From: a virus
Taxonomy: Duplodnaviria > Heunggongvirae > Uroviricota > Caudoviricetes
IMG/VR virus record: IMGVR_UViG_2541047922_000008
Length of the DNA stretch: 18,265 nucleotides
Direction: 5' to 3' (one strand)
Both the position numbers and the translations under genes were made by a program. Shown here piece after piece: positions 664 through 14,863 of the stretch. The notes under the pieces were generated by a model. It saw only the letters and a program-made list of their open reading frames with translations. It did not search any database and was not told the origin of the DNA. Every line of letters starts with the position of its first letter. Within the stretch, counting starts at the first letter, position 1.

Positions 664-691
664 GTTAAAAACAAGGCCGCGAAAGCGGCCT
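664..691 (-). terminator. rho-independent terminator of the large-protein cassette
   Basis: Minus strand reads aggccgc-tttc-gcggcct followed by tgttttta. It begins 9 nt after the TGA stop (700-702) of the 104-aa gene. Confidence 0.7.
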
Positions 692-699
692 GTGACATG

Positions 700-1014
700 T
701 CACGATAGTTCCGTTTTGTTGAATTCAATTATATCAAGGTCAGAACTTTCGTAATCCTTACCGAATAAAGCAAAACATATCGCGTCAAGTTCTCTCTTAT
801 GTTTGGACGCCCGATCATAATTACCACCCCAACAGCAAATGAATCCACCAAGTACTGCTGATTCAAAAAGTAATGATGCTGCATCAATATGTCTGAACCA
901 GGAGTCTATAAGTAAAGCAGAGAGTGATATTAATGTTCCCCACCCGCCAATCCTTCTCCATTTCTCAGCTTCATATTTAAGAGAAGCAATATATTCAATT
1001 TTATCTCTCGTCAT
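700..1014 (-). CDS. small membrane protein, 104 aa, two predicted TM helices
   Basis: Hydrophobic stretches IGGWGTLISLSALLIDSWF and AASLLFESAVLGGFICCWGG. Its start overlaps the upstream stop as ATGA, with a GGTGGGGA SD. AT-rich relative to the upstream gene. Confidence 0.75.
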   Translation of the reverse strand: MTRDKIEYIASLKYEAEKWRRIGGWGTLISLSALLIDSWFRHIDAASLLFESAVLGGFICCWGGNYDRASKHKRELDAICFALFGKDYESSDLDIIEFNKTELS

Positions 1015-3770
1015 CAGTTCCCCACCGCCTTTCCAAAATCCGGTGCTCTACGTGGCGCAATAGCACCCGGTTCCCACCAACTCGTTATGTCGAACTCCCG
1101 TTGCGAGCGGTCCCTTACTCGATCATTGTAACCAGGGTTTGCCATCTCCTGAAGTTGTTGCAATATCAGGTGATTGGTTATCGCTTTCGCATACCACAGG
1201 TTTGCGAATGGGGTGATCATGCGGGCTGTTTTCAGTGCATCGGCACCGAATGATGTTTCTTCACCCTGTAGAGCCTTCTGTGGGTTAGTAATCAGTAATT
1301 TTGTTAACTGCTCTGCAAAGCTCAACACAGGGCCCCCCATAGTGGCACCGATGCTGGAGCCATATTGCGTATGGTCCTGGAAAATAAAATCACCGTAGAT
1401 ACCGAACGAACCACCTTTCAGTAAAGCCTGAACCCATGTGGTTGGTTTTGTCATATCCAGCGGATCATTACCATTTAACAAACTGTTCATCTGGATCGCA
1501 AACATACCAGCAAGAGTTGTTCCCCCGATATATGAGGCCAGAAATTTAATGGCCGGAACGGTGTCCAAATCCCGTGTTCTGTTAACAAGTTGCCGAAATC
1601 CAGCAAATGGGGTTGTTTTGAAGAGCATGAAGCTCTTCATTAACTCGCCAGCATCATCACGGGCATATGTATCAATACCCGTAGCGGTGGTCACAGCATT
1701 GGTCATCTCACCGTGCGTAATTCCCAGCAATTTCTGGGCTGCTTCAGCGCGTGCATTACGAATCATGCGCGTGATGGTCTGCTCAGCCTCAGCGTCGAAT
1801 GCTTCTTTCATCCGTTTCAGGCGTTCTGGAGGGAGATCTCCAAGGGCTGCCAGTGCCTTTTCACTCCCGGCACGAATCCGGGTAATACGGTCTGCCATAA
1901 TGTCGGCTATTACGTTATCGGGCACAGCGTAAATCGCGTCTGGCGTCATCCCCATATGCCCGGCAGTAGTCATCGGCCTGAGTTCTGCCGCTGCCATGAT
2001 GGCCCAGTCCTCATTGCTCCATCCCTTGTTAGCCAGAATGGTTTTATCGGTTCCTTTCATATCGTCCAGCGTCTTAAATTTTCTGGTCAGCTCGCCAATG
2101 TTTTTGTACATCAGGAGACCAAACGACGCTTTGTTTGCGCGGTCCATAGCGATCAGCCCGGACCACTTCAGTGTCTTCTCTGCGAACCAGCCAGTTATGC
2201 CGCGAGACAAGTCAAACCCGCCCATTTTCGAAACCACAGCAGCATGTGAATCCACCAGCAGACCGAGTTCAGCATTCGCCTTTTTGGCATCTCCACTAAA
2301 CAGGTTTTTGATAGTGTTAACGGAAAGCCGCATTCCACCACGGGTAAAGCCCAGCGCCTGCGCATTTGCCCGCATAATTGCCTGGTCGCTGGTTGCTGTC
2401 AGTACGCTGGTGCCAAGCATGGCGCTGGTCATCAGGTTACGCAGACCACCAACTGCTGAAGAGAACACACTCGATGAAGCGACACCATTTAGGCCAGCCA
2501 TTGAGTTGAACATACGGGCAACTAATTTGGCCTCATCCTCCATTTCTTTTTTGCGTTTCCCGCCTGTTACTGCGCGCTTATAGATGCGATCCAGTACCAG
2601 GGAAAAGTTTCTTTCGGCGTCCGGACCAAAGGCTTTAACGACGCCCAAATCCCTGGATGATGATTGCAGGTGCGACATCATCACCCCCACCAGCGGCTGC
2701 TGAGTGTATCGCTCCATATAGGCGAAGTGTGACTGCGCATCCTTGAACGCCATCACCCTGTGCTGAGAACCACGGCTCTTTATTCCTCCGGCTCCCATAA
2801 ATGTACCAGGCTCAATTTTGTTTGCCCCATCAGTGGCCTTCGTTTCAAAGATCGCTTCCAGTGCCTGACGGTACTCGACGTCATTCATAATGCTGCCGTC
2901 AGGATTAACGTAATTGCTGCGATCCTGCGTGTTGTAAGCGTCATCAACCCATTTCTGGCGGGCAAACTCAATCGGTGGCTGGCGACCTGAAAGACGTGCT
3001 GTAGCTTGCTCTGCCACTGGTAACGATGCCAGCCATTCTTCGCGCCCGGCATTGCGAATAAGGTCAGCATCATCCACATATGGCGTATGCCAGTCTTCTC
3101 GCAGGCCTATGTCAAAGCCATTGTCGTTCATCTCATGACGAACACGGCCTGTTACATCCTTCCAAATCTGTGCAATTTTCTTCGCCAGGGGATTCCCGGT
3201 ATCTTCGCCATATATTTCTTTCAGGATCTGGAGTTGTGCAGACTTTGCCGCCTGCCTGTCGAATACACTCCGAAACCGCTGCTCTCCAAGCGCCCTGCTC
3301 TGCTCGAAGAATTTGCGGACGTCATCACCTGCTTTTAGAAGTTCAGCACTGAGCTGACGGGACCAGTCCTGATATGCCCCAATTGCAAGCTCTTCAGCAG
3401 AAGTAACGGAGATATCAGCTTTGTCTCTCGATCGTCGGCCAGCAAAAATAAACTGCTGCAAATTAACAGGTGTCTGCTGATCAGGCGGGATGTTAGCATC
3501 GAGAGTGTCAGTAATTTTACTGATGGCGATCGCATTCTGGGCAACACGCTGTCTTTTCTTGTACACATCATGAACCACACGCTGGCGAACCAGTTCTGCA
3601 GCATCCATGTATGTTTGAGCATCAGGAATACCACTTTTGCCTTCCATTGCATTCTTTCTGTGCACTTGCCGCACAGCTTCTTTGATACGATCTTCGATAT
3701 TTTTCAGCTCATCAGCCTTTGGCTGGCGACCAAGTGTCTGCGCAATAGCTTCAACACATGCCTGTTTCAT
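1014..3770 (-). CDS. large protein (918 aa from ATG 3770) of unknown function, phage internal-virion/ejection-like
   Basis: Long ORF. I prefer ATG at 3768-3770 (GAGGA SD 7 nt upstream, TAATG overlap with the upstream stop) over the GTG at 3791 used by the track. Contains Gly-rich hydrophobic segments (SSVFSSAVGGLRNLMTSAMLGTSVLTA; GGTTLAGMFAIQ; KGGSFGIYGDFIF; ATMGGPVLSF) and long helical charged regions. No catalytic motif recognised. Confidence 0.85.
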   Translation of the reverse strand: MKQACVEAIAQTLGRQPKADELKNIEDRIKEAVRQVHRKNAMEGKSGIPDAQTYMDAAELVRQRVVHDVYKKRQRVAQNAIAISKITDTLDANIPPDQQTPVNLQQFIFAGRRSRDKADISVTSAEELAIGAYQDWSRQLSAELLKAGDDVRKFFEQSRALGEQRFRSVFDRQAAKSAQLQILKEIYGEDTGNPLAKKIAQIWKDVTGRVRHEMNDNGFDIGLREDWHTPYVDDADLIRNAGREEWLASLPVAEQATARLSGRQPPIEFARQKWVDDAYNTQDRSNYVNPDGSIMNDVEYRQALEAIFETKATDGANKIEPGTFMGAGGIKSRGSQHRVMAFKDAQSHFAYMERYTQQPLVGVMMSHLQSSSRDLGVVKAFGPDAERNFSLVLDRIYKRAVTGGKRKKEMEDEAKLVARMFNSMAGLNGVASSSVFSSAVGGLRNLMTSAMLGTSVLTATSDQAIMRANAQALGFTRGGMRLSVNTIKNLFSGDAKKANAELGLLVDSHAAVVSKMGGFDLSRGITGWFAEKTLKWSGLIAMDRANKASFGLLMYKNIGELTRKFKTLDDMKGTDKTILANKGWSNEDWAIMAAAELRPMTTAGHMGMTPDAIYAVPDNVIADIMADRITRIRAGSEKALAALGDLPPERLKRMKEAFDAEAEQTITRMIRNARAEAAQKLLGITHGEMTNAVTTATGIDTYARDDAGELMKSFMLFKTTPFAGFRQLVNRTRDLDTVPAIKFLASYIGGTTLAGMFAIQMNSLLNGNDPLDMTKPTTWVQALLKGGSFGIYGDFIFQDHTQYGSSIGATMGGPVLSFAEQLTKLLITNPQKALQGEETSFGADALKTARMITPFANLWYAKAITNHLILQQLQEMANPGYNDRVRDRSQREFDITSWWEPGAIAPRRAPDFGKAVGN

Positions 3771-5830
3771 TATGGGTTCCTCAAGAAGCACGCTGCCGCT
3801 ACAGAATAAACCTTCGATTCGTTCTGGACTGTCTTAATCTGTTCATCCAACTCAGCCAGGAGATCAGAAAGTTTTGTCGGGTTTCCGGTTTCCGGGTGAG
3901 CTATAGTCAGCTCAGGATTGGCAACAGCCATGTCCCTAGCAGCCATAAGGTCATAGCTGTTGGATGAGAGAACCTGCCCTGTATCTGGATCAACGCTGAC
4001 GTCCCCTCTGTGTTCACCAGCCGATGAGAAAGCACTTTCAGCACGAGGGACAGGCGATTCACTAATTGGCTCTGATGATGTTTCATATCTGACACCATTT
4101 TCTTCAAAAACCTTTTGTATTTCATGGTATTGCTCTTGGTAAGTATCAGATATATCTGATCGCAATGGACCATCAAGCCCTCGCGCCATCCCCCCAACAT
4201 TTACAGGCTGACCATCATTAAGTTGCCTGTATGCTTCATCCATGGCGTCAACATGGCTGTTGATGCTCTCATTGCTGGTGTGAAGCACTGGTGACGATTC
4301 AATATCGTAATGAAGCCCCTCATTCAAAATGTGGGCTGCATCAATATCGCTTGGTTTTATTCTTTCCCTCGCCCGGATACCAAAAACTTTTTCTACTGCG
4401 GCTTCCAGTTTCATATTGCGAAGACGCATACTTACGAGTAACCGTAACTGCTCAGGTGTAACGGTTCCAACCTGAATACCACTGTATCTGAATATATAGG
4501 CTTTAAAACCTGAAATAATTTTTTCCCATGATGAAACGCTTGTCTTTAGAGATGGATTTACTGCATGTGCGGCAACTTCTTCAGCGTACAACCACTCAGG
4601 ATATGTTTCAGGGTACTCACCCCTTTTCTTATATTCATAATATTGTGACATCCCATATGCAAATTCAGGATAGTCAGAATGCTTGTTTGCAGATTTAAGT
4701 ACAGCATTAGCTAGCTTTCTGGCCTTCCAGTCAGGGTAATGGCGCTGCTCAAGATGAAGCGCCTCGTGATGAAGGGTTTCTAACAGTTCTTCATGGTCTT
4801 TTAATCCATTAATATTTATTCTTATTATTGGTTCTTTTCCAGAAGCTACTGTCACATGACCTTTATTCAGAAGTATTTCTCCATCACTATTTTTTATTGC
4901 TGGTTCATTAATAAGTTCTATTACTCCTGAATCAGATAAATCACGAACCATTGACTCAATGTTACCATCAGGAGATTGCTGATAATGTTCACCAAAAGTT
5001 GATTTTATTTCTTCTGCAGAAATGTTCGACTCTGTACCATCATGGTTATTATGGGTAGTCAGGTGATGAACGCCACCAAAGACCCCGCCTAAAACGGCAT
5101 CGACTAACATCGCCTGACCGTCAAATACCCGGTACTGTTTTGCCATCTCCGTGTAGCCTTTTTCCTCCAGTGTTGCGCCGACAGAGTAACGGTTCAGTCC
5201 ACCGAATCCGGTGTTGATTGCCACACCTGAGGCAATGCGCGTTGCCAGTGTGGTGCCGACGGCAGCGGGTAAGGCCATACCCACAGCATTGAAAAGGCTT
5301 TGCTGCGTTGCCAGGTTACGCGCCGTAGCCTCGTCTACTCCCTTCCCTTTAAAATCCTGATAGGACTGCTCATACGTAGAACTGAAAGCTGTAGCAGCGC
5401 CGATGAGGGGACCGCCAAACATAGTTGTTCCGATTGCAGGAACAAATTTACCAAGCTCATTTAATACCTCAGCCGCCATTCCCTGACTGCCTGCATCAGG
5501 CTTCACATAGCTGCGGGCATCCTGTAACTGTTTTCCGATCGTGTCGTATGTATCATTCAGTGTTTTGTCAGCATCAGGGAACATCTCCCGAAAAATATTA
5601 ACAGTCGGTGCCACGTCTGCGGTAAATGCCGGATCGCTAATCAGGCGCTTGCTGAATCCGACGGCAGACTGCGCGAGACCGAGAGTCCCCTCCGCCACGC
5701 CGCTCAAAAGTGCAGTACCTGAACCCTGGAAGGGAGTCGGATCGTAGTCTTCTGGCCTTGCTGGGTTGGCAACTGTTTTGTCGTCAATCCATGCCTGACC
5801 TTCTGGAGCCAAAGAAAAAACATCAGACAT
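3770..5830 (-). CDS. large protein (686 aa) with Gly-rich hydrophobic N-terminal third and a central HEXXH (zincin-like) region
   Basis: Long ORF. GAGGG SD 7 nt upstream and a TAATG overlap with the 843-aa gene stop. N-terminal segments PAIGTTMFGGPLIGAATAF, NAVGMALPAAVGTTLATRIASGVAINTGFGG and VDAVLGGVFGGV. HEALH at residues 355-359. Confidence 0.85.
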   Translation of the reverse strand: MSDVFSLAPEGQAWIDDKTVANPARPEDYDPTPFQGSGTALLSGVAEGTLGLAQSAVGFSKRLISDPAFTADVAPTVNIFREMFPDADKTLNDTYDTIGKQLQDARSYVKPDAGSQGMAAEVLNELGKFVPAIGTTMFGGPLIGAATAFSSTYEQSYQDFKGKGVDEATARNLATQQSLFNAVGMALPAAVGTTLATRIASGVAINTGFGGLNRYSVGATLEEKGYTEMAKQYRVFDGQAMLVDAVLGGVFGGVHHLTTHNNHDGTESNISAEEIKSTFGEHYQQSPDGNIESMVRDLSDSGVIELINEPAIKNSDGEILLNKGHVTVASGKEPIIRININGLKDHEELLETLHHEALHLEQRHYPDWKARKLANAVLKSANKHSDYPEFAYGMSQYYEYKKRGEYPETYPEWLYAEEVAAHAVNPSLKTSVSSWEKIISGFKAYIFRYSGIQVGTVTPEQLRLLVSMRLRNMKLEAAVEKVFGIRARERIKPSDIDAAHILNEGLHYDIESSPVLHTSNESINSHVDAMDEAYRQLNDGQPVNVGGMARGLDGPLRSDISDTYQEQYHEIQKVFEENGVRYETSSEPISESPVPRAESAFSSAGEHRGDVSVDPDTGQVLSSNSYDLMAARDMAVANPELTIAHPETGNPTKLSDLLAELDEQIKTVQNESKVYSVAAACFLRNP
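4754..4768 (-). other. HEXXH motif (HEALH) of the 686-aa protein
   Basis: The reverse complement of 4754-4768 is CAC GAG GCG CTT CAT = H E A L H, in the context LETLHHEALHLEQRH. The motif alone does not prove a metallopeptidase. Confidence 0.55.
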
Positions 5831-8361
5831 TATTCAACCCTCACGACAATAGCTTCATTGGTTCTGGGATCTGTTGCCCAGCGTCCGCTACCATTTACCA
5901 GCCGATACCGGTTATTGCCGATATTAACTGGTGTGAAGTTTGACACTGCATTTACGTTAAGTCCGGCTTCTTTCAGTGCTTGTTTCGCAGATGTGGTATA
6001 GCGATCTTTGAAAGTAGATTTATCCATGCCGAAAGGCATTACAACGTCGCCGCCATTAAAATCCTTGTATATACCGCCAGTAGCATACTTCACGGCATCA
6101 GCAACAGTGTCTGTATCAGGCATACTGGTTCTTACCGTAGATGCATCACCTGATTGATAAGCTATTCCTGCGTAAGCGGCTTTGAAAAGGCTATAACTGA
6201 TCTGACGTAACTGCGGGTTACGGGCAAATGCGTTACCTACCTGTTTGTCGAAAGCGTCTTTCATCTTATCTTCGCTCGGCAACTGTACCGGAGTTATGCC
6301 CGCATTCTTCATGGCCTTCGTCGGATTCAGTAGTTGGTCACCGGAAAGAATAACCTTTGCAACGTCGTACTTGTTCATCGTCGGCTTATACCCGATGAAC
6401 TGACTATATGGGATCGACGGTCTGGTGTTATCGTACTGATTATCCGGCGTGCCCAGCAGCAGCGCAGAATAGGCTGTTGCCGCACTGTTCGGAGCAATTA
6501 CAGATGCCACCTGCCGTATTGCTGGCGCAGGCAGCTTCTCCCCCATGCTCTGCAACAGTTTAATTGTCTGGTCAACGTTCTGAGTGCCGCGCACCTGCTG
6601 TGCCAGCGCAGCCGCCTCTTCACTGTTGAGGATTGGGGCATTAATTCCCAACGCGCGTAAGCTTTCCTGCGACGAGAAACGGTTAGCCACCTCGGCAGTG
6701 ATGTCGTCAGGGTTGTTGCTGGTGATCGGCTTATAGGCTCCGATTTCCACCGCTGCACTAAACGGATTATTCTGCCTCTGGGTTATTACCTTCGTGGCTG
6801 CCGCCGATACCCGGTCGAATAACTCCGCACGAGACGCATACCCCTCCCCTGTCTCACCAGTATCCGGGCGTAATTGCTCAACATATGCGGTAATGCTGCT
6901 TGTCGGCATGTTGCGGAAAGAGCCTATATACTGTCCGGCGATCTGCAAATTTCTGAACTCGGTATATCGCAGGTTTCCTTCTCTGACACCATAAGCAGCA
7001 ATGAACTCACCCTCACCAGGCGGGTTAGGAAATTCAACGCCACGCATATACGCAGCCGTTGCATCGCGAACCCGGCTTTCGAGCATCGTTCTATATTCAG
7101 CCTGCTGCTGTCTGGCTAATGCATCCGTCTGTCGCAACACGCTGGCCTGATCTGATTCACTTAAAGCATCGAACCAAGCTACACCGGTATAACGTTTATT
7201 TTTTGTCGGTAGCTGAGAAAGCCCCAGTGCGGCACTAACGCCAGCGGCCAATTGCTGATCACTGTACGGCTGACTGCCTTGCTCATGATGAATAATTGCT
7301 TTGCACAGAGATTTCAGTGTGTCAGGATTTGATGCGTCAAGCGGCTGGTCAGGAGTTACACCGAGCTGAGCACATACTGCCCGTATATAAGCATCAGTTT
7401 TATTATCATCACTGGCCGGTGCCCAGCGATTAATTATTTCGCTGATGGTGTCATAACCCTGACGCTGATACGACAGCAAATTGCGACCAAGCGCGCGAAT
7501 ACCGTGTTCAGGGGTTTCGAATTTGGCAAAGCGACCATCATCACCAGTCTGCCCAACCCACGGATTAGTTTTGCTGTATTCAAGATTGCCGGGGTTATTG
7601 TTGCGTATACCGCGGGTACGATCGGAAGAGCCACTATCTGCTACAGCACGGCGAGATCCAGCAGCAGTATCGCTTAACTCGCCGTTTTGCTGTCTTACCT
7701 GAAGATAGTTTGCTCCAATAGCATTTTGAGCAGTTGCTTTTGCTGTTGCTTCTTTAAACTCGATTTTCTTGGCCTGGATTTGCTCGTCGCTCCAGCCATG
7801 CGCAATACCGTAATCCTCAATTTGCTGGAAAGTTTGCGTATTAGCCAATATGTATGCTGCGTTGTCGCCATATAATGCTGAGGCATTTTTACCATTATTC
7901 AGCAGTGTCGCCTGAAACTGGCCTTCTTCGTAGGCATTTATTTGCCCTATCTCGTACCTCCCGGCCTGCGTAGCGAACTGAATACGCTGCTGCTGCGCCT
8001 GCTGCATGAAAGCATTACGAGCCTGTTCATCCGGCAGCGACATAGCCAGTTGTTCGATCTGAGCATCAAACTGCTGTGTATACTCATGGCCTTTTCCAAT
8101 AGCATTTTTCCCTTTCAGGTTAAGCAATCCTGTTTCAGGATTATTCAGCAGATCACTGCCTGTCTGACTGAGTTTAAGGGATGCCTCCTGAACCAAGGCA
8201 ATATTGGCGCGCTGTTTTGCCTGACCAAGAACATCAATTGCCTCTGTCCCTGCCCGAACAAAAGCATCACCAATACCTGGCTGAGAAAACGTCTGCAAGC
8301 CTGCTGACTGAACTCCACGGCTCTCAACCTGGCGTCCGGATACTGTTGGTACGACTGGCAT
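5830..8361 (-). CDS. large protein (843 aa) with a central RNNNPGN-type domain, phage virion-associated cell-wall-hydrolase-like
   Basis: Long ORF with AGGGGG SD. The N-terminus is Q/A-rich and helical (MPVVPTVSGRQVESRGVQSAGLQTF...). Residues ~250-372 read RGIRNNNPGNLEYSKTNPWVGQTGDDGRFAKFETPEHGIRALGRNLLSYQRQGYDTISEIINRWAP. I recall this pattern from phage structural or putative muramidase proteins (memory, unverified). Confidence 0.85.
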   Translation of the reverse strand: MPVVPTVSGRQVESRGVQSAGLQTFSQPGIGDAFVRAGTEAIDVLGQAKQRANIALVQEASLKLSQTGSDLLNNPETGLLNLKGKNAIGKGHEYTQQFDAQIEQLAMSLPDEQARNAFMQQAQQQRIQFATQAGRYEIGQINAYEEGQFQATLLNNGKNASALYGDNAAYILANTQTFQQIEDYGIAHGWSDEQIQAKKIEFKEATAKATAQNAIGANYLQVRQQNGELSDTAAGSRRAVADSGSSDRTRGIRNNNPGNLEYSKTNPWVGQTGDDGRFAKFETPEHGIRALGRNLLSYQRQGYDTISEIINRWAPASDDNKTDAYIRAVCAQLGVTPDQPLDASNPDTLKSLCKAIIHHEQGSQPYSDQQLAAGVSAALGLSQLPTKNKRYTGVAWFDALSESDQASVLRQTDALARQQQAEYRTMLESRVRDATAAYMRGVEFPNPPGEGEFIAAYGVREGNLRYTEFRNLQIAGQYIGSFRNMPTSSITAYVEQLRPDTGETGEGYASRAELFDRVSAAATKVITQRQNNPFSAAVEIGAYKPITSNNPDDITAEVANRFSSQESLRALGINAPILNSEEAAALAQQVRGTQNVDQTIKLLQSMGEKLPAPAIRQVASVIAPNSAATAYSALLLGTPDNQYDNTRPSIPYSQFIGYKPTMNKYDVAKVILSGDQLLNPTKAMKNAGITPVQLPSEDKMKDAFDKQVGNAFARNPQLRQISYSLFKAAYAGIAYQSGDASTVRTSMPDTDTVADAVKYATGGIYKDFNGGDVVMPFGMDKSTFKDRYTTSAKQALKEAGLNVNAVSNFTPVNIGNNRYRLVNGSGRWATDPRTNEAIVVRVE
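7246..7614 (-). other. RNNNPGN-containing conserved domain inside the 843-aa protein
   Basis: The reverse complement of 7585-7605 is CGC AAC AAT AAC CCC GGC AAT = R N N N P G N. Domain limits were estimated by eye. Confidence 0.5.
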
Positions 8362-8420
8362 CAGTAACCCCCTGTTTTGAATCGTGTACCAGAATTCATA
8401 AAACCTGATTTAAATAACAT
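8361..8420 (-). CDS. 19-aa upstream ORF (MLFKSGFMNSGTRFKTGGY) coupled to the 843-aa gene
   Basis: GGAGGG SD 6 nt upstream of ATG (8418-8420). Its TGA stop overlaps the ATG of the 843-aa gene (TGATG). Too short to judge coding by composition. Confidence 0.25.
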   Translation of the reverse strand: MLFKSGFMNSGTRFKTGGY

Positions 8421-8766: not shown

Positions 8767-8790
8767 AAAAAAAGCCGGATTGCTCCGGCT
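8767..8790 (-). terminator. rho-independent terminator ending the replication operon
   Basis: Minus strand reads gccgga-gcaa-tccggc followed by T7. It separates the replication module from the cassette. Confidence 0.7.
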
Positions 8791-8796
8791 CTGTGC

Positions 8797-8946
8797 TTAC
8801 TTCTGGTAGTTACGCCATACTGATTTCCCGATCCCATCTATCCCCATTTCTTTTTCAGTGCGTTTAAGCGACCGTTTCAGGTCTTCTAAATTATCCGGTT
8901 GCTTTGGTGGCCTCTGTGCCTTGCTGGAACATTCCAGTCGTCGCAT
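8797..8946 (-). CDS. possible 49-aa basic protein (MRRLECSSKAQRPPKQPDNLEDLKRSLKRTEKEMGIDGIGKSVWRNYQK)
   Basis: Hand-found ORF below the track cutoff. Its stop lies 7 nt before the terminator. SD is weak and no family was recognised. Confidence 0.3.
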   Translation of the reverse strand: MRRLECSSKAQRPPKQPDNLEDLKRSLKRTEKEMGIDGIGKSVWRNYQK

Positions 8947-9030
8947 TGATATGCAATACCGTTCCTTGTCAGTACCCCAACTGCATTACTTCACCCCATC
9001 GCGCCGCCGCTCTTCGGTACAGGGTTTTAG

Positions 9031-9447
9031 TTAGCCTCCGACTCTTCCGTAGTGCTGTTCTGGTGGATTCACATAGCCCCTTTCTTGCAGGTATTCGCGA
9101 ATATCAGACATCAGGAGACGGTTAACCGTGCTCTTGTCTTTTCTCCGGTAAAGGCGTCTGGTGATCATGAAGTAGTTAGCAATGATCTCCGGTATATCCC
9201 TGACGCTGATACATGCTGTATGCTGGTCAATAGCTTCAATCATCTCTTCACGAGTTACAAAAGTCTGGCGTAAACGAGTGATCACACCATGTACATCTGA
9301 ATGATCATTTATACGCTTATTTTGGCGCTTCGCGCTCTCGACTGTGACACTGACAACAATGTCAACTCTTTGTTTTTCCGCAATTTCATCCACAATGTGA
9401 TCACCTGCACGGCGACCATGTGCGTGATCATTTCTTACTATTTCCAT
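9031..9447 (-). CDS. hypothetical protein, 138 aa
   Basis: ORF co-oriented with the operon, overlapping the proQ/finO-like stop by 20 nt. No family recognised. Confidence 0.65.
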
Positions 9448-9925
9448 TCATCTCCTCCAGTAGTTTTCCTGCGTGCGTCTGTTGTAGTGGTGTTACCTCG
9501 CCGCACGGCTGGCCTTTCAGGTCGTAACGCGCGCCACCAGCTACCAGGGCGCGGTAATAGCGCGGAGTCTGCACATAACGCGCCAGCGTTGCGCGTAGTG
9601 TTCCCTGTCCGAGTGAAATACCTCTCGCGGCAATATCCTGTATCAGGTCGTCAAATATCCCCACCTTAAGCGGCTTAGGTGATTCCGGGCTGAATAATTC
9701 AGGCCATAGCTCAATAAGACGGTTAACGCGTCTGCGGTTTTTACGCTGCTGTTTGGTCATACGCCGCCGCGGTGTTGCTCCTGTGAGCTTCTGCTGTGTG
9801 TTCTGGTTATCTGGCATCACTTTATGCGCCGATGTGGTTTTATTCTGCTGCTGCGCCGCCTGTGCTGTTTTCTGCGGCGTGCCGTAAATGCCCTTCGGTT
9901 TTCTGTTTATGGTCAGCTTTGTCAT
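9428..9925 (-). CDS. ProQ/FinO-domain RNA-binding protein, 165 aa
   Basis: Basic N-terminus followed by [29 protein letters not shown]...[35 protein letters not shown], the characteristic FinO/ProQ domain pattern. GGGGAAGG SD. Confidence 0.85.
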
Positions 9926-13025: not shown

Positions 13026-13283
13026 TTATTTCCCGGTATGGGGTTCTTCTTTATATTTATGGGCTAACAAATCTGGTAATTGCCTGTATTTATCCTCGGC
13101 AATATATTCAGAATAATCGACAGCACTGTTCAGTATATCTAACGCCGTTTCATGCTCCAGATTCGAAACTATAAGGAACGTTGCTACTTTTAGCATATTC
13201 GCGATATGCAAAAGAGCATCAATTTCATTTTTTGGCGCTTCACTGAATTTTTGCTCCAGAAGAATAAATCGTTCATCACGCAT
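13026..13283 (-). CDS. hypothetical protein, 85 aa, AT-rich
   Basis: AGGGGGA SD. Its start overlaps the Icd-like stop (ATGCGTGA). No family recognised. Confidence 0.6.
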   Translation of the reverse strand: MRDERFILLEQKFSEAPKNEIDALLHIANMLKVATFLIVSNLEHETALDILNSAVDYSEYIAEDKYRQLPDLLAHKYKEEPHTGK

Positions 13284-13479
13284 AGTATTCCCCCTGACGG
13301 ATGCGGGCAGTAAATACCATCACGCAGCCAGTCGGGGATTGCTGACGGGCTTCCTGTTCGCTGGCGGCCTCGATGTGTATTACGCGTGGTTGTGCGGTGC
13401 TCAGGGCGATAAAACGCCAGATGTATTTATTCAGGTTGTGCGAGTCCCGCCCTTGCGGGTGTGTGGTATGATTTAACAT
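13276..13479 (-). CDS. icd: Icd-like (host cell division inhibitor family) small protein, 67 aa
   Basis: Internal ATG (13477-13479) of the spurious 396-aa track ORF, with a GAGGT SD. The sequence MLNHTTHPQGRDSHNLNKYIWRFIALSTAQPRVIHIEAASEQEARQQSPTGCVMVFTARIRQGEYYA has the Y-I-W-x-F ... SE-x-EAR ... F-x-AR pattern I associate with Icd-like proteins of P4-like elements (memory). Confidence 0.65.
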   Translation of the reverse strand: MLNHTTHPQGRDSHNLNKYIWRFIALSTAQPRVIHIEAASEQEARQQSPTGCVMVFTARIRQGEYYA

Positions 13480-13484
13480 AGCTA

Positions 13485-13582
13485 CCTCGATACGCTTTCT
13501 ATCGTTGGTGGTTAGACGCCCTGCATGTGTTGCGAGCACTGCGGGGCGTTGCTTAATTTGAGCAATGCAACCCAAACTGTGC
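13485..13582 (-). ncRNA. structured leader, candidate C4/CI/IsrK-type antisense immunity RNA
   Basis: ~100-nt leader between the predicted start site and icd. A 9-bp stem with one mismatch and a 14-nt loop spans 13517-13548. A 5-bp hairpin at 13488-13504 abuts the SD. In P1 and P4-like elements a C4/CI RNA precedes icd. No covariance-model search was possible. Confidence 0.35.
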
Positions 13583-13588
13583 GCACAG

Positions 13589-13616
13589 ATTAAAATCATG
13601 TGTGCGCACATGTCAA
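13589..13616 (-). promoter_or_regulatory. strong sigma70-like promoter of the icd-primase operon
   Basis: Minus strand reads TTGACA (13616-13611), 16-nt spacer, TTTAAT (13594-13589). Confidence 0.6.
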
Positions 13617-13619
13617 TAC

Positions 13620-13648
13620 TTAACTTCTCACTTTTTTTGCTGTATTGT
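13620..13648 (+). promoter_or_regulatory. candidate promoter of the + strand RHH gene
   Basis: TTAACT (13620-13625), 17-nt spacer, TATTGT (13643-13648). Back-to-back with the minus-strand promoter. Confidence 0.4.
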
Positions 13649-13684
13649 GTGCGCCCATCAAATCCATTTAAGTGAGGTGTACCA

Positions 13685-13882
13685 ATGTCTAGCGGAAACA
13701 CAAACAACAAATCAGCAAAGAAAAATATTCGATTCCCGCACGAGCTTATAGATGGGATTGATGCCAGTGTTGAACAAGAAAAATTAACTAATCCTAGTGC
13801 TAATTTTTCCGCATGGGTCTTAGATGCCTGTGGACGCAAATTAAAATATGAACAGCGCCGGAAGGCCAAAGAGCAGGAGTAA
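13685..13882 (+). CDS. small RHH-type regulator (YlcI/YnfO-DUF3950-like), 65 aa; likely repressor acting at the TGTGCGCACA sites
   Basis: GAGGTG SD 5 nt upstream. KNIRFPHELIDGIDASV (strand + helix) and NFSAWVLDACGRKL (helix) fit an RHH fold. Divergent from the operator-bearing promoter. Confidence 0.65.
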   Translation: MSSGNTNNKSAKKNIRFPHELIDGIDASVEQEKLTNPSANFSAWVLDACGRKLKYEQRRKAKEQE

Positions 13883-13909
13883 CCATCACCAGCGCCGTGG
13901 TGCGGTGAA

Positions 13910-13922
13910 CTGTGGCGCACAG
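13910..13922. promoter_or_regulatory. fourth operator-like site (CTGTGgCGCACAG)
   Basis: Same sequence as the 13577-13588 palindrome with one inserted G. Located between the two small + strand ORFs. Confidence 0.4.
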
Positions 13923-13939
13923 GGTTACAGGTATCTACG

Positions 13940-14137
13940 ATGACTGACAAATCATTAAAGAAATTATCCTCATCCAGGAAAAAACAACGCAAAAATGCGG
14001 TAAGCGAACAAGAACAGGAAAGATTTGCGCCATGTGCGTTTGTCCTTGAGAAGTTCTTAAAAGAGTACAGGCGCACAAAAATGGAATCGCATACCTGGAA
14101 AACATCGCAGTATGGCGATGCTAAAGAGCAGGAATAG
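13940..14137 (+). CDS. possible small basic protein, 65 aa
   Basis: ORF with a weak SD, ending with the same AKEQE-stop as the upstream gene. A + strand terminator follows at 14228. Confidence 0.35.
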   Translation: MTDKSLKKLSSSRKKQRKNAVSEQEQERFAPCAFVLEKFLKEYRRTKMESHTWKTSQYGDAKEQE

Positions 14138-14227
14138 CCCACCAGCAAGCCAGCACACTGATCACATTGCCCACCAGCCGCAAATCTGGCATTGTTGGCG
14201 ATGCGTTTGATTTCCTTTGTTCCCACT

Positions 14228-14256
14228 GGCGACCTATCCCGGTCGCCTTTGTTTTG
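14228..14256 (+). terminator. rho-independent terminator of the + strand small-gene unit
   Basis: ggcgacc-tatccc-ggtcgcc followed by tttgttttg. Confidence 0.7.
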
Positions 14257-14305
14257 CCTGTTATCCAGCAACGGGGCGCTTTTTCTTTCTGTAACGTTCG
14301 GATCG

Positions 14306-14863
14306 TTACACATTGCTTTCACCCTCCAGAAAATCAGGCTGATATTTACGCCATAGCGCCCGCTCTTCTCGTTCCAGTGCATCTTTTGCCTCTTTGCATT
14401 GCTGTAACCTGTAACCGCGTTTGCTGGCTTCCTGTTGATATGCAGCCTGACGTTTACTGAAATCATTCAGCATGGCAAACGGAACACCATAACCCCCCGT
14501 TTTGCGGATTGAAGGAATCACCTCGCGGAATACCCAGTTACTGAAACGGTGCGCAAATGTGCCTGGTGTGGAAGCTTTACGGCTGCGGGCGATCAGTTTG
14601 TAGAAACCTGATTCAGAGACAACATTCCAGCTTCTGGCACCACCACGCTTACCGGAATGACCCTCGGTTAAAGCTAGGGTCATTACCTCATCGTTATCCA
14701 GAACTGAAACGGCATCAGTAACATTGCTGATTTCCAGCGCGGCACACACATCAGCGCCAACAAACCACGGCTCGCCGTTGATACTCACTATGCGCACCTG
14801 AATGTCATCGAATTTAATGACAGAGATTTCAGTGCGACCAGCATAAAAGACAGGTTTACGCAT
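14306..14863 (-). CDS. Bro-N domain protein (prophage antirepressor family), 185 aa
   Basis: IKFDDIQVRIVSINGEPWFVGADVCAALEISNVTDAVSVLDNDE matches the Bro-N pattern. 8-nt overlap with the upstream gene. Confidence 0.85.
   Translation of the reverse strand: MRKPVFYAGRTEISVIKFDDIQVRIVSINGEPWFVGADVCAALEISNVTDAVSVLDNDEVMTLALTEGHSGKRGGARSWNVVSESGFYKLIARSRKASTPGTFAHRFSNWVFREVIPSIRKTGGYGVPFAMLNDFSKRQAAYQQEASKRGYRLQQCKEAKDALEREERALWRKYQPDFLEGESNV

Follow-up and report, generated by a model that had tools for sequence, protein, structure and literature searches.

The DNA considered here, referred to as the window, is a stretch of 18,265 nucleotides (nt) from the IMG/VR record IMGVR_UViG_2541047922_000008, which is filed as a virus of the Caudoviricetes. 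On its minus strand lie open reading frames (ORFs) of 843, 686 and 925 amino acids (aa), in the same order as the genes gp15, gp16 and gp17 of phage epsilon15, and we analyzed the middle one, a gp16-like protein that contains an AT-rich block with an HEXXH motif. A preliminary description, made from the letters of the window alone, had proposed that this block is a horizontally acquired, zincin-like peptidase domain grafted into a carrier protein. The features of the locus are listed in Table 1.

Table 1. Features of the gp16-like gene and of its surroundings in the window
Feature	Position	Strand	Basis
686-aa ORF, epsilon15 gp16 orthologue (internal virion/ejection protein family, phrog_1145)	3770..5830	−	84%/74% identity at the ends; lies between gp15- and gp17-like genes
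N-terminal module, aa 1–277, Gly/Ala-rich, putative membrane insertion	5000..5830	−	conserved in family; G+A = 25%; hydropathy
Replaced central block, aa 278–479, AT-rich, no counterpart in epsilon15 gp16	4394..4999	−	homology break, GC content, profile homology
Core HEXXH domain, ~aa 289–478	4397–4966	−	homology to polyvalent-protein HEXXH domain
HEALH (H355, E356, H359), proposed two zinc ligands and catalytic base	4754..4768	−	coordinates computed; invariant in six-sequence alignment; predicted helix
E417–E418 in YAEEVAAHAV, candidate third zinc ligand (either one), second conserved helix	4577..4582	−	invariant in alignments A2, A3, A4 and A5; predicted helix 128–139 of model
Acidic C-terminal module, aa 480–686, net charge about −21, with stop codon	3770..4393	−	conserved in family; charge computed
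843-aa gp15-like gene	5830..8361	−	79% identical to epsilon15 gp15, annotated lytic-transglycosylase-like in that record
925-aa gp17-like virion structural protein gene	1014..3791	−	89% identical to epsilon15 gp17
104-aa ORF, last of the four-gene block	700..1014	−	no detectable epsilon15 gp18 match
Terminator-like hairpin upstream of the gp15-gp16-gp17 block	8771..8792	−	9-bp stem, then T run
Terminator-like hairpin directly after the 104-aa ORF, closing the block	674..691	−	hairpin search

The N- and C-terminal parts of the 686-aa protein matched phrog_1145 of the PHROGs database (E = 5.5e-137). In a BLASTP comparison with epsilon15 gp16, identity was 84% at aa 1–277 and 74% at aa 480–686, and aa 278–479 displayed no similarity. 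Because the homology stops at aa 277/278 and restarts at aa 479/480, the replaced block comprises aa 278–479, corresponding to positions 4394–4999 of the window. An AT-rich block with an HEXXH motif is accordingly present inside the ORF, as had been described, but its limits, previously placed at about aa 256–450, are corrected by the homology break. The flanks have the character first ascribed to them, namely a Gly-rich N-terminal part and an acidic C-terminal part. In the N-terminal module, hydropathy analysis revealed four moderately hydrophobic segments (aa 39–59, 126–150, 173–205 and 235–259). A C39-like match in this module, obtained with the whole protein (phmmer against the PDB, E = 0.03), was rejected as spurious. 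The protein thus consists of three modules, a membrane-type N-terminal one, the HEXXH block and the acidic C-terminal one, among which the HEXXH block alone has an enzymatic look; orthology suggests that the whole may be delivered.

The guanine plus cytosine (GC) content of positions 4480–5065 was 37.0%, compared with 48.9% over the whole window. Among all segments of 586 nt, the minimum was 36.7%, in the segment starting at 4465, and 0.16% of the segments were as low as 4480–5065 or lower; the trough was also apparent in other composition analyses of the window. At third codon positions, the GC content (GC3, in bins of 30 codons) was 0.13, 0.07 and 0.20 across aa 271–360 and 0.20–0.40 across aa 361–450, and in the flanks of the ORF it was mostly 0.33–0.63, with one C-terminal bin of 0.17. 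The block is enriched in Lys, Asn, Ile and Glu codons; however, as the trough reaches third codon positions, it is not explained by Lys/Asn/Ile usage alone. The sharp change of composition within one ORF, which had been proposed from hand counts, therefore persists in the computed values, where GC3 falls to 0.07–0.20 and the composition is not uniform, and the hand counts themselves were exact (17/60 GC at 4801–4860 and 34/60 at 5281–5340).

To place the block within its family, we aligned 14 gp16-family members (alignment A1, in which the middle occupies columns 258–513) and found near-invariant ends joined by three unrelated middles. The first is a Pro/Ala linker of about 65 aa, present in proteins of 521 aa. 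The second, found in proteins of about 630 aa including epsilon15 gp16, consists of the linker and a helical insert of about 110 aa, without HEXXH. The third is the HEXXH block, which in A1 is restricted to the window protein and to a protein of 690 aa, P0003. The suggestion that the central block might be swappable is thus borne out by the alignment of homologues, in which ends that are 74–84% identical enclose middles unrelated to one another. The helical insert of the ~630-aa variants itself occurs in at least two sequence types, for example P0004/P0007 versus P0035/P0118.

The HEALH motif sits inside LETLHHEALHLEQRH, at the location given in the preliminary description (aa 355–359, positions 4754–4768, minus strand), in which the numbering of H355, E356 and H359 was also right. 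By chance, 0.046 occurrences of HEXXH would be expected in the 686-aa protein, and at least one was present in 4.3% of shuffled sequences. We searched for relatives of the block by several routes. A word-index homology search with the central block alone gave no scoring match, and, when 1.84 billion representatives were searched exhaustively with the block by phmmer, the single match was to an identical 74-aa fragment; the family of the HEXXH block is not seen by single-sequence HMMER. A tblastn search against phage genomes returned weak matches (E values from 2e-3 to 1e-2) to aa 414–472, and the targets were giant 'DarB-like antirestriction' or 'PLxRFG' proteins in ~60-kb phages of Ralstonia, Klebsiella, Serratia and Ochrobactrum.

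The translated target loci hold the entire domain, beyond aa 414–472, and share with the window protein a common order of elements: an N-terminal helix with a D-x-G-x-[VIL]-x-L end followed by a DG-x-I strand; then L-[LM]-HE-x-[FL]-H and, after 55–75 residues, EE-[FLV]-[GA]-A-[YH]-A; and finally the tail G-x-Q-[ILV]-G-x-[VI]-TP-x-QLR ('VTPxQLRALA'). In an alignment of six sequences with identities of 24–63% (A2), residues H355, E356, H359, W368, E417, E418, A421, A423 and W435 are invariant. The two His and the Glu of HEXXH and the downstream EE pair are kept both in P0003, which is 63% identical in the block, and in domains that are 24–28% identical. The HEXXH residues singled out at the outset are therefore conserved among homologues, and the motif carries weight because it is kept in distant ones. 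A profile search with A2 against a set of 5.8 billion proteins yielded only 9 matches, mostly short fragments.

We compared a profile of the window protein and P0003 with nine polyvalent-protein domains using hhalign, and obtained a probability of 97.7% (E = 2e-12, 166 columns). Because the giant proteins had been selected by tblastn via their C-terminal third only, the comparison was rerun on the N-terminal two-thirds alone, the part without a role in hit selection; there, HEXXH was aligned to HEXXH with P = 2.9e-5 (hhalign-type comparison). The phrog_10089 family ('DarB-like antirestriction') was matched end to end, with aa 1–184 of the domain aligned to profile positions 3427–3611 of 4647, and the module order in the giant proteins is SLT, SNF2 helicase, methyltransferase, GNAT-like, HEXXH domain and LPD39. 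In the searches run, the domain was met, beyond the window protein and P0003, only in giant polyvalent virion proteins and in short fragments or small proteins. The class named in the preliminary description, that of polyvalent proteins, is hence the one in which the distant homologues lie, as giant virion-associated proteins of the 'DarB-like antirestriction' or 'PLxRFG' kind. Its connection to conjugative elements, by contrast, was not upheld, as a plasmid collection gave one weak match, itself a PLxRFG protein, and no link.

The HEXXH domain is matched by no Pfam model in the giant proteins of Serratia phage Parlo (L010, 3,764 aa) and Klebsiella phage ZX1 (L011, 3,867 aa). It may be the sole recognizable protease-like module of these proteins, and the records leave it unannotated. 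Nothing on a protease domain emerged from a literature search for PLxRFG.

Metallopeptidase (MPTase) domains of polyvalent proteins have been described as bearing HEXXH and a Glu on the first and second C-terminal helices, respectively, with variable inserts between these helices, and as having an N-terminal helix and a three-stranded sheet before the HEXXH helix (Iyer et al., PMC5512222). The secondary structure predicted for the block by AlphaFold2 follows this order, with an N-terminal helix, then 4–5 strands, the helix of HEXXH, two helices in the insert and, last, the helix of the EE pair, in low-confidence models with a predicted local distance difference test (pLDDT) score of 53–55. A Foldseek search of the PDB with these low-confidence models (pLDDT ~55) gave no match, and the fold searches could not decide because the models were poor. 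In a structural search of BFVD with the low-confidence model, each of the eight best matches aligned at full length to a chunk of a large phage protein, and two are named polyvalent-protein-associated; the best match had E = 0.04 and a probability of 0.92, and a PolyVal ADP-ribosyltransferase appeared at rank 13, a result that is suggestive only. Assignment of the block as a putative zincin-like metallopeptidase rests on the motifs, the predicted secondary structure and the homology to polyvalent-protein HEXXH domains, and it is well supported by the motifs and the homology. The idea of a zincin-like peptidase domain in a carrier protein is consequently backed by motifs and homology, including the hhalign probability of 97.7%, and fold-level similarity is not among its support. 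Because PF18818 (MPTase-PolyVal) gave no match, the block is not filed under that family.

The compositional anomaly, the module swap, the homology to polyvalent-protein HEXXH domains and the invariance of the catalytic-type residues are direct observations. On this basis, we favor the interpretation, at a probability of about 0.62, that the 686-aa protein is an ejection protein of the epsilon15 gp16 type in which a zincin-like HEXXH...E metallopeptidase module of about 200 aa, acquired laterally and acting at entry, has taken the place of the flexible linker. From sequence we infer zinc binding, proteolysis, delivery into the cell and the kind of target. The conserved N- and C-terminal modules would, judging from orthology, preserve the ability of the protein to be loaded into an epsilon15-like capsid and to be ejected together with the DNA, and the Gly/Ala-rich hydrophobic helices of the N-terminal module may enter the envelope. 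The central module would bind zinc via H355, H359 and either E417 or E418, with E356 as the putative general base, and might cleave a protein at the entry site. Its candidate substrates are, on the one hand, the ejection proteins and, on the other, a host protein of the envelope or of defence.

The age of the insertion could be judged from P0003. This protein is the only divergent HEXXH-type gp16 that we found (690 aa; contig L003, positions 3433–5505, Logan run SRR29202206, contig GC content 47.6%), and its gene adjoins a T7_gp14-like gene, as is also the case in ordinary epsilon15-like prophages (L004), within a late operon that looks normal. Its identity to the window protein is 77% in the N-terminal part, 63% in the middle and 69% in the C-terminal part, and its gene exhibits only a mild GC dip (0.38–0.42). 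A recent import of the block was considered and rejected because of P0003, in which the block is 63% identical and the flanks 69–77%; the insertion is therefore older than the split of the two lineages. Scans of IMG/VR and of metagenomes for HEXXH-type gp16 returned only copies at least 97% identical to that of the window, and GTDB species representatives contained none. An AT-rich donor of the block was not found in the scans of IMG/VR, metagenomes and GTDB species representatives.

We further surveyed 13 fetched copies of the gene, including the window itself. Nine are intact and have the full 686 aa, two have only 611 and 642 aa and lie in loci ending soon after the match, one, in L020, is disrupted, and the window completes the 13. 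Every amino-acid substitution in the intact copies falls outside the block, although the counts are small. In the L020 copy (IMG/VR, 97% identical, positions 2285–2848), the ORF around HEXXH is just 111 aa, reflecting either a disrupted copy or a sequencing error. The gene is carried by 37 of 5,426 complete Escherichia coli genomes.

The genomic context indicates that the window is a chromosomal, integrative, satellite-like E. coli island of about 20 kb rather than a phage genome. The island contains genes for an integrase, a helix-turn-helix (HTH) regulator, Rha, AntA/B, BRO-N, an Icd-like protein, DUF4222, a DUF927 primase, SSB, ProQ/FinO and a frameshifted PerC, after which come the gp15-gp16-gp17-like block and the 104-aa ORF; the gp15-, gp16- and gp17-like trio are the sole virion-type genes. 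Copies of this island whose gp16-like genes are at least 99% identical are found at two places in the chromosome, yicC/dinD and tRNA-Gly/actS, with a different integrase at each, and the copy at the tRNA-Gly/actS site carries the 404-aa integrase seen in the window (copies inspected: L001, 15.2–35.3 kb, and L012, 11.2–29.3 kb). Its satellite-type traits are the integrase, a replication module of its own (DUF927 primase and SSB), the lack of a full morphogenesis set and the occupation of two sites. Capsid and other morphogenesis genes are lacking, and packaging into a virion would need a helper phage. Literature searches on islands of this type and on satellites with ejection proteins brought up nothing relevant.

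The backbone of the island is widespread and elsewhere bears different cargo. In E. coli cq9 (L013, 5.7–8.9 kb), a related island occupying the same tRNA-Gly site has other cargo after PerC, including a DUF2213 protein, and other related islands have HEPN or GIY-YIG proteins at the cargo position; the position after PerC has the look of a slot for variable cargo. With full E. coli prophages, the epsilon15-like segment shares matches of 85–94%, which are confined to the stretch between ~347/426 and ~8361/8374. In those prophages, genes for a T7_gp14-like protein and for proteins of 842, 634 and 918 aa follow one another, and the junction of the capture is located just upstream of the start codon of the gp15-like gene (~8361–8374); the adjacent T7_gp14-family gene was left behind. 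The epsilon15 reference record has the corresponding order, with gp13 and gp14 (internal virion proteins), gp15 (842 aa, lytic-transglycosylase-like), gp16 (634 aa) and gp17 (918 aa), and labels gp15 and gp17 as head and virion proteins. The PHROGs families of the 843-aa and 925-aa ORFs of the window are likewise annotated as head or virion structural proteins and as transglycosylase-like proteins.

Three further observations concern the remainder of the island. The PerC-family regulator gene (window ~8797–9022; L001 25028–25253) is annotated in RefSeq as frameshifted in both island copies inspected. The ProQ/FinO-family RNA chaperone gene (window 9428–9925, minus strand) adjoins the SSB and primase genes, an arrangement kept in related islands. 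The 396-aa ORF at 13276–14466 (minus strand) is probably not one gene: in RefSeq, its 3′ end holds only a partial Icd-like fragment and the opposite strand has a YlcI/YnfO gene, and PHROG matches cover only aa 305–392.

Several results weigh against the interpretation of the 686-aa protein as an ejection protein with an acquired metallopeptidase. An HEXXH motif by itself is weak evidence. At E ≤ 10, a Pfam search with the block and 12–13 relatives of the domain identified no peptidase family, the best match being WLM at E = 0.1 in one member; an NCBIfam search of the domain gave no match, and neither did a profile search of the domain against the PDB. The AlphaFold2 models are of low confidence (pLDDT 53 from a single sequence and 55 from an 11-row alignment), and the block may belong either inside or outside the 12 MPTase clades counted by Iyer et al. 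2017 (PMC5512222). At the level of the island, genes for a capsid, portal, terminase, gp14-like protein and tailspike are absent, the island-bearing genomes contain no second gp16 match, and no helper was identified.

Other explanations were weighed against the same data. The module could be a processing protease that trims gp16 or the co-packaged gp15- and gp17-like proteins before ejection, in the producing cell or in the capsid. Autoproteolytic processing has been proposed as the default role that MPTases play within polyvalent proteins, including P1 DdrB (Iyer et al., PMC5512222). The position of the domain also agrees with such a role: in the giant homologues it lies between other modules (GNAT upstream, LPD39 downstream), which would suit the freeing of neighbours, and in gp16 it fills the linker between two modules. 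However, the 521-aa and ~630-aa gp16 variants work without a protease, and processing of gp16 is therefore not intrinsically required. Sequence alone cannot tell processing from the action of an effector, and we regard the former as unlikely.

A wider proposal, which we put forward as a speculation with rather long odds, is that the island is a satellite of epsilon15/phiV10-like podoviruses that brings its own set of ejection proteins (gp15-, gp16- and gp17-like), one of them with a polyvalent-type zinc protease, instead of remodelling capsids. Particles loaded in this way might deliver island DNA past envelope or defence barriers, or might cripple helper progeny. A related possibility is that the three look-alike proteins enter the particles of an infecting epsilon15-like phage as interference cargo, either sabotaging the phage (defence) or aiding island transfer (piracy). 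Such a role is consistent with the three genes being the cargo of a ~20-kb int-primase island without morphogenesis genes, which resides at two sites with two integrases, with the other cargo (HEPN, GIY-YIG, DUF2213) at the same place in related islands, and with a capture that begins just upstream of the gp15-like start codon and omits the gp14-like gene. However, P0003, the only other HEXXH variant, adjoins a T7_gp14-like gene in an apparently ordinary phage late operon, and hence the module probably arose in a phage and not as island-specific weaponry; moreover, no helper phage was identified and the literature search found no such satellites. We therefore consider interference improbable.

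The block might instead be a non-catalytic spacer that sets the length or geometry of the ejection conduit, a role that the helical insert in the ~630-aa proteins may also play, with HEXXH as a relic of the donor domain. The same position is indeed non-enzymatic in other family members, which have a Pro/Ala linker or a helical insert, and the fold of the block rests on low-confidence models. Yet four catalytic-type residues and several others are invariant among homologues that are 24–63% identical and occur in unrelated protein contexts, and the substitutions of the intact copies, few as they are, all lie outside the block; we accordingly hold this explanation to be very unlikely. That the AT-rich trough merely reflects local amino-acid usage or mutational drift and not a foreign origin is hardly credible, since, despite the richness of the block in Lys, Asn, Ile and Glu codons and the mild dip of P0003 (GC 0.38–0.42), GC3 values of 0.07–0.20 go beyond amino-acid usage and the trough, where GC content is lower than anywhere else in the window, falls where homology to epsilon15 gp16 breaks off.

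The favored interpretation, an ejection protein with an inserted metallopeptidase module, can be compared with known systems. The closest relatives of the domain are in the DarB-like/PLxRFG polyvalent proteins (phrog_10089) of Ralstonia phages AhaGv and UAM5 (Gervaisevirus), Klebsiella phage vB_KpnP_ZX1, Serratia phage Parlo and Ochrobactrum phage POI1126. These proteins contain the same domain end to end (24–28% identity, hhalign 97.7%), but there it is one of many modules in 3,700–4,800 aa, whereas here a gp16 scaffold of 686 aa contains it as the sole insert; in the window version, moreover, an extra strand region of 18 residues precedes HEXXH, and the insert between the helices is different. 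The reference class for the block is that of the MPTase domains of polyvalent proteins (PMC5512222; PF18818; ArdC C-terminus, N4 virion RNA polymerase, P1 DdrB), polyvalent proteins being polypeptides with 2–15 functionally unrelated domains that are delivered during invasion (Iyer et al. 2017, PMC5512222). The block resembles these domains in the HEXXH helix, the Glu on a second helix, the preceding small sheet and helix, and the variable inserts, all as predicted here at pLDDT 53–55, and in sitting on a carrier that, judging from orthology, would be delivered with invading DNA. It differs in that it is undetected by PF18818 and that its carrier is a dedicated ejection-conduit protein, not a classic multi-enzyme polyvalent protein.

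With epsilon15 gp16 (NP_848224, 634 aa) and the 521-aa relatives, the window protein shares orthologous N-terminal 277 aa and C-terminal 207 aa and the gp15-gp16-gp17 gene order. In contrast, its middle is unrelated to that of epsilon15, which has a Pro/Ala linker and the ~110-aa helical insert without HEXXH, and, unlike in the late operons of the gp16 family, the gene here is not accompanied by gp14-like, capsid, portal and tail genes. T7 gp16 is another podovirus ejection protein with an embedded enzyme domain. Epsilon15 gp15, with its transglycosylase-like region, and phi24B gp47 likewise link a catalytic module to a protein that exits the capsid before the DNA or together with it, although the catalytic families differ and the module described here is a putative one. 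The phi24B protein is a polyvalent protein of 2,811 aa with a MuF-C metallopeptidase domain (bioRxiv 10.64898/2026.04.10.717836).

Ejection proteins that bear enzymes are an established theme, as are zincin modules in polyvalent proteins that are injected. What is new is an unmodelled zincin-like clade, its insertion in the linker slot of gp16, and the location of the gene set on a mobile island without capsid genes. This clade, which has no Pfam or NCBIfam model and was not reached by an exhaustive phmmer search with the window domain, links a small ejection protein to the giant DarB-like/PLxRFG proteins, and at 686 aa the former is far more tractable than proteins of 4,000 aa for finding the substrate of the domain. 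The island context raises the testable idea that ejection proteins can be carried by satellites; if the satellite proposal were true, this 'ejectosome replacement' would be a new satellite strategy, and the module would be a first instance of a polyvalent-type protease at work inside the ejection conduit of a podovirus. In gp16 of the epsilon15 type, the linker between the modules is a natural cargo insertion site, and the protein offers a scaffold for testing the action of an injected protease at DNA entry and for engineering cargo delivery by podophages.

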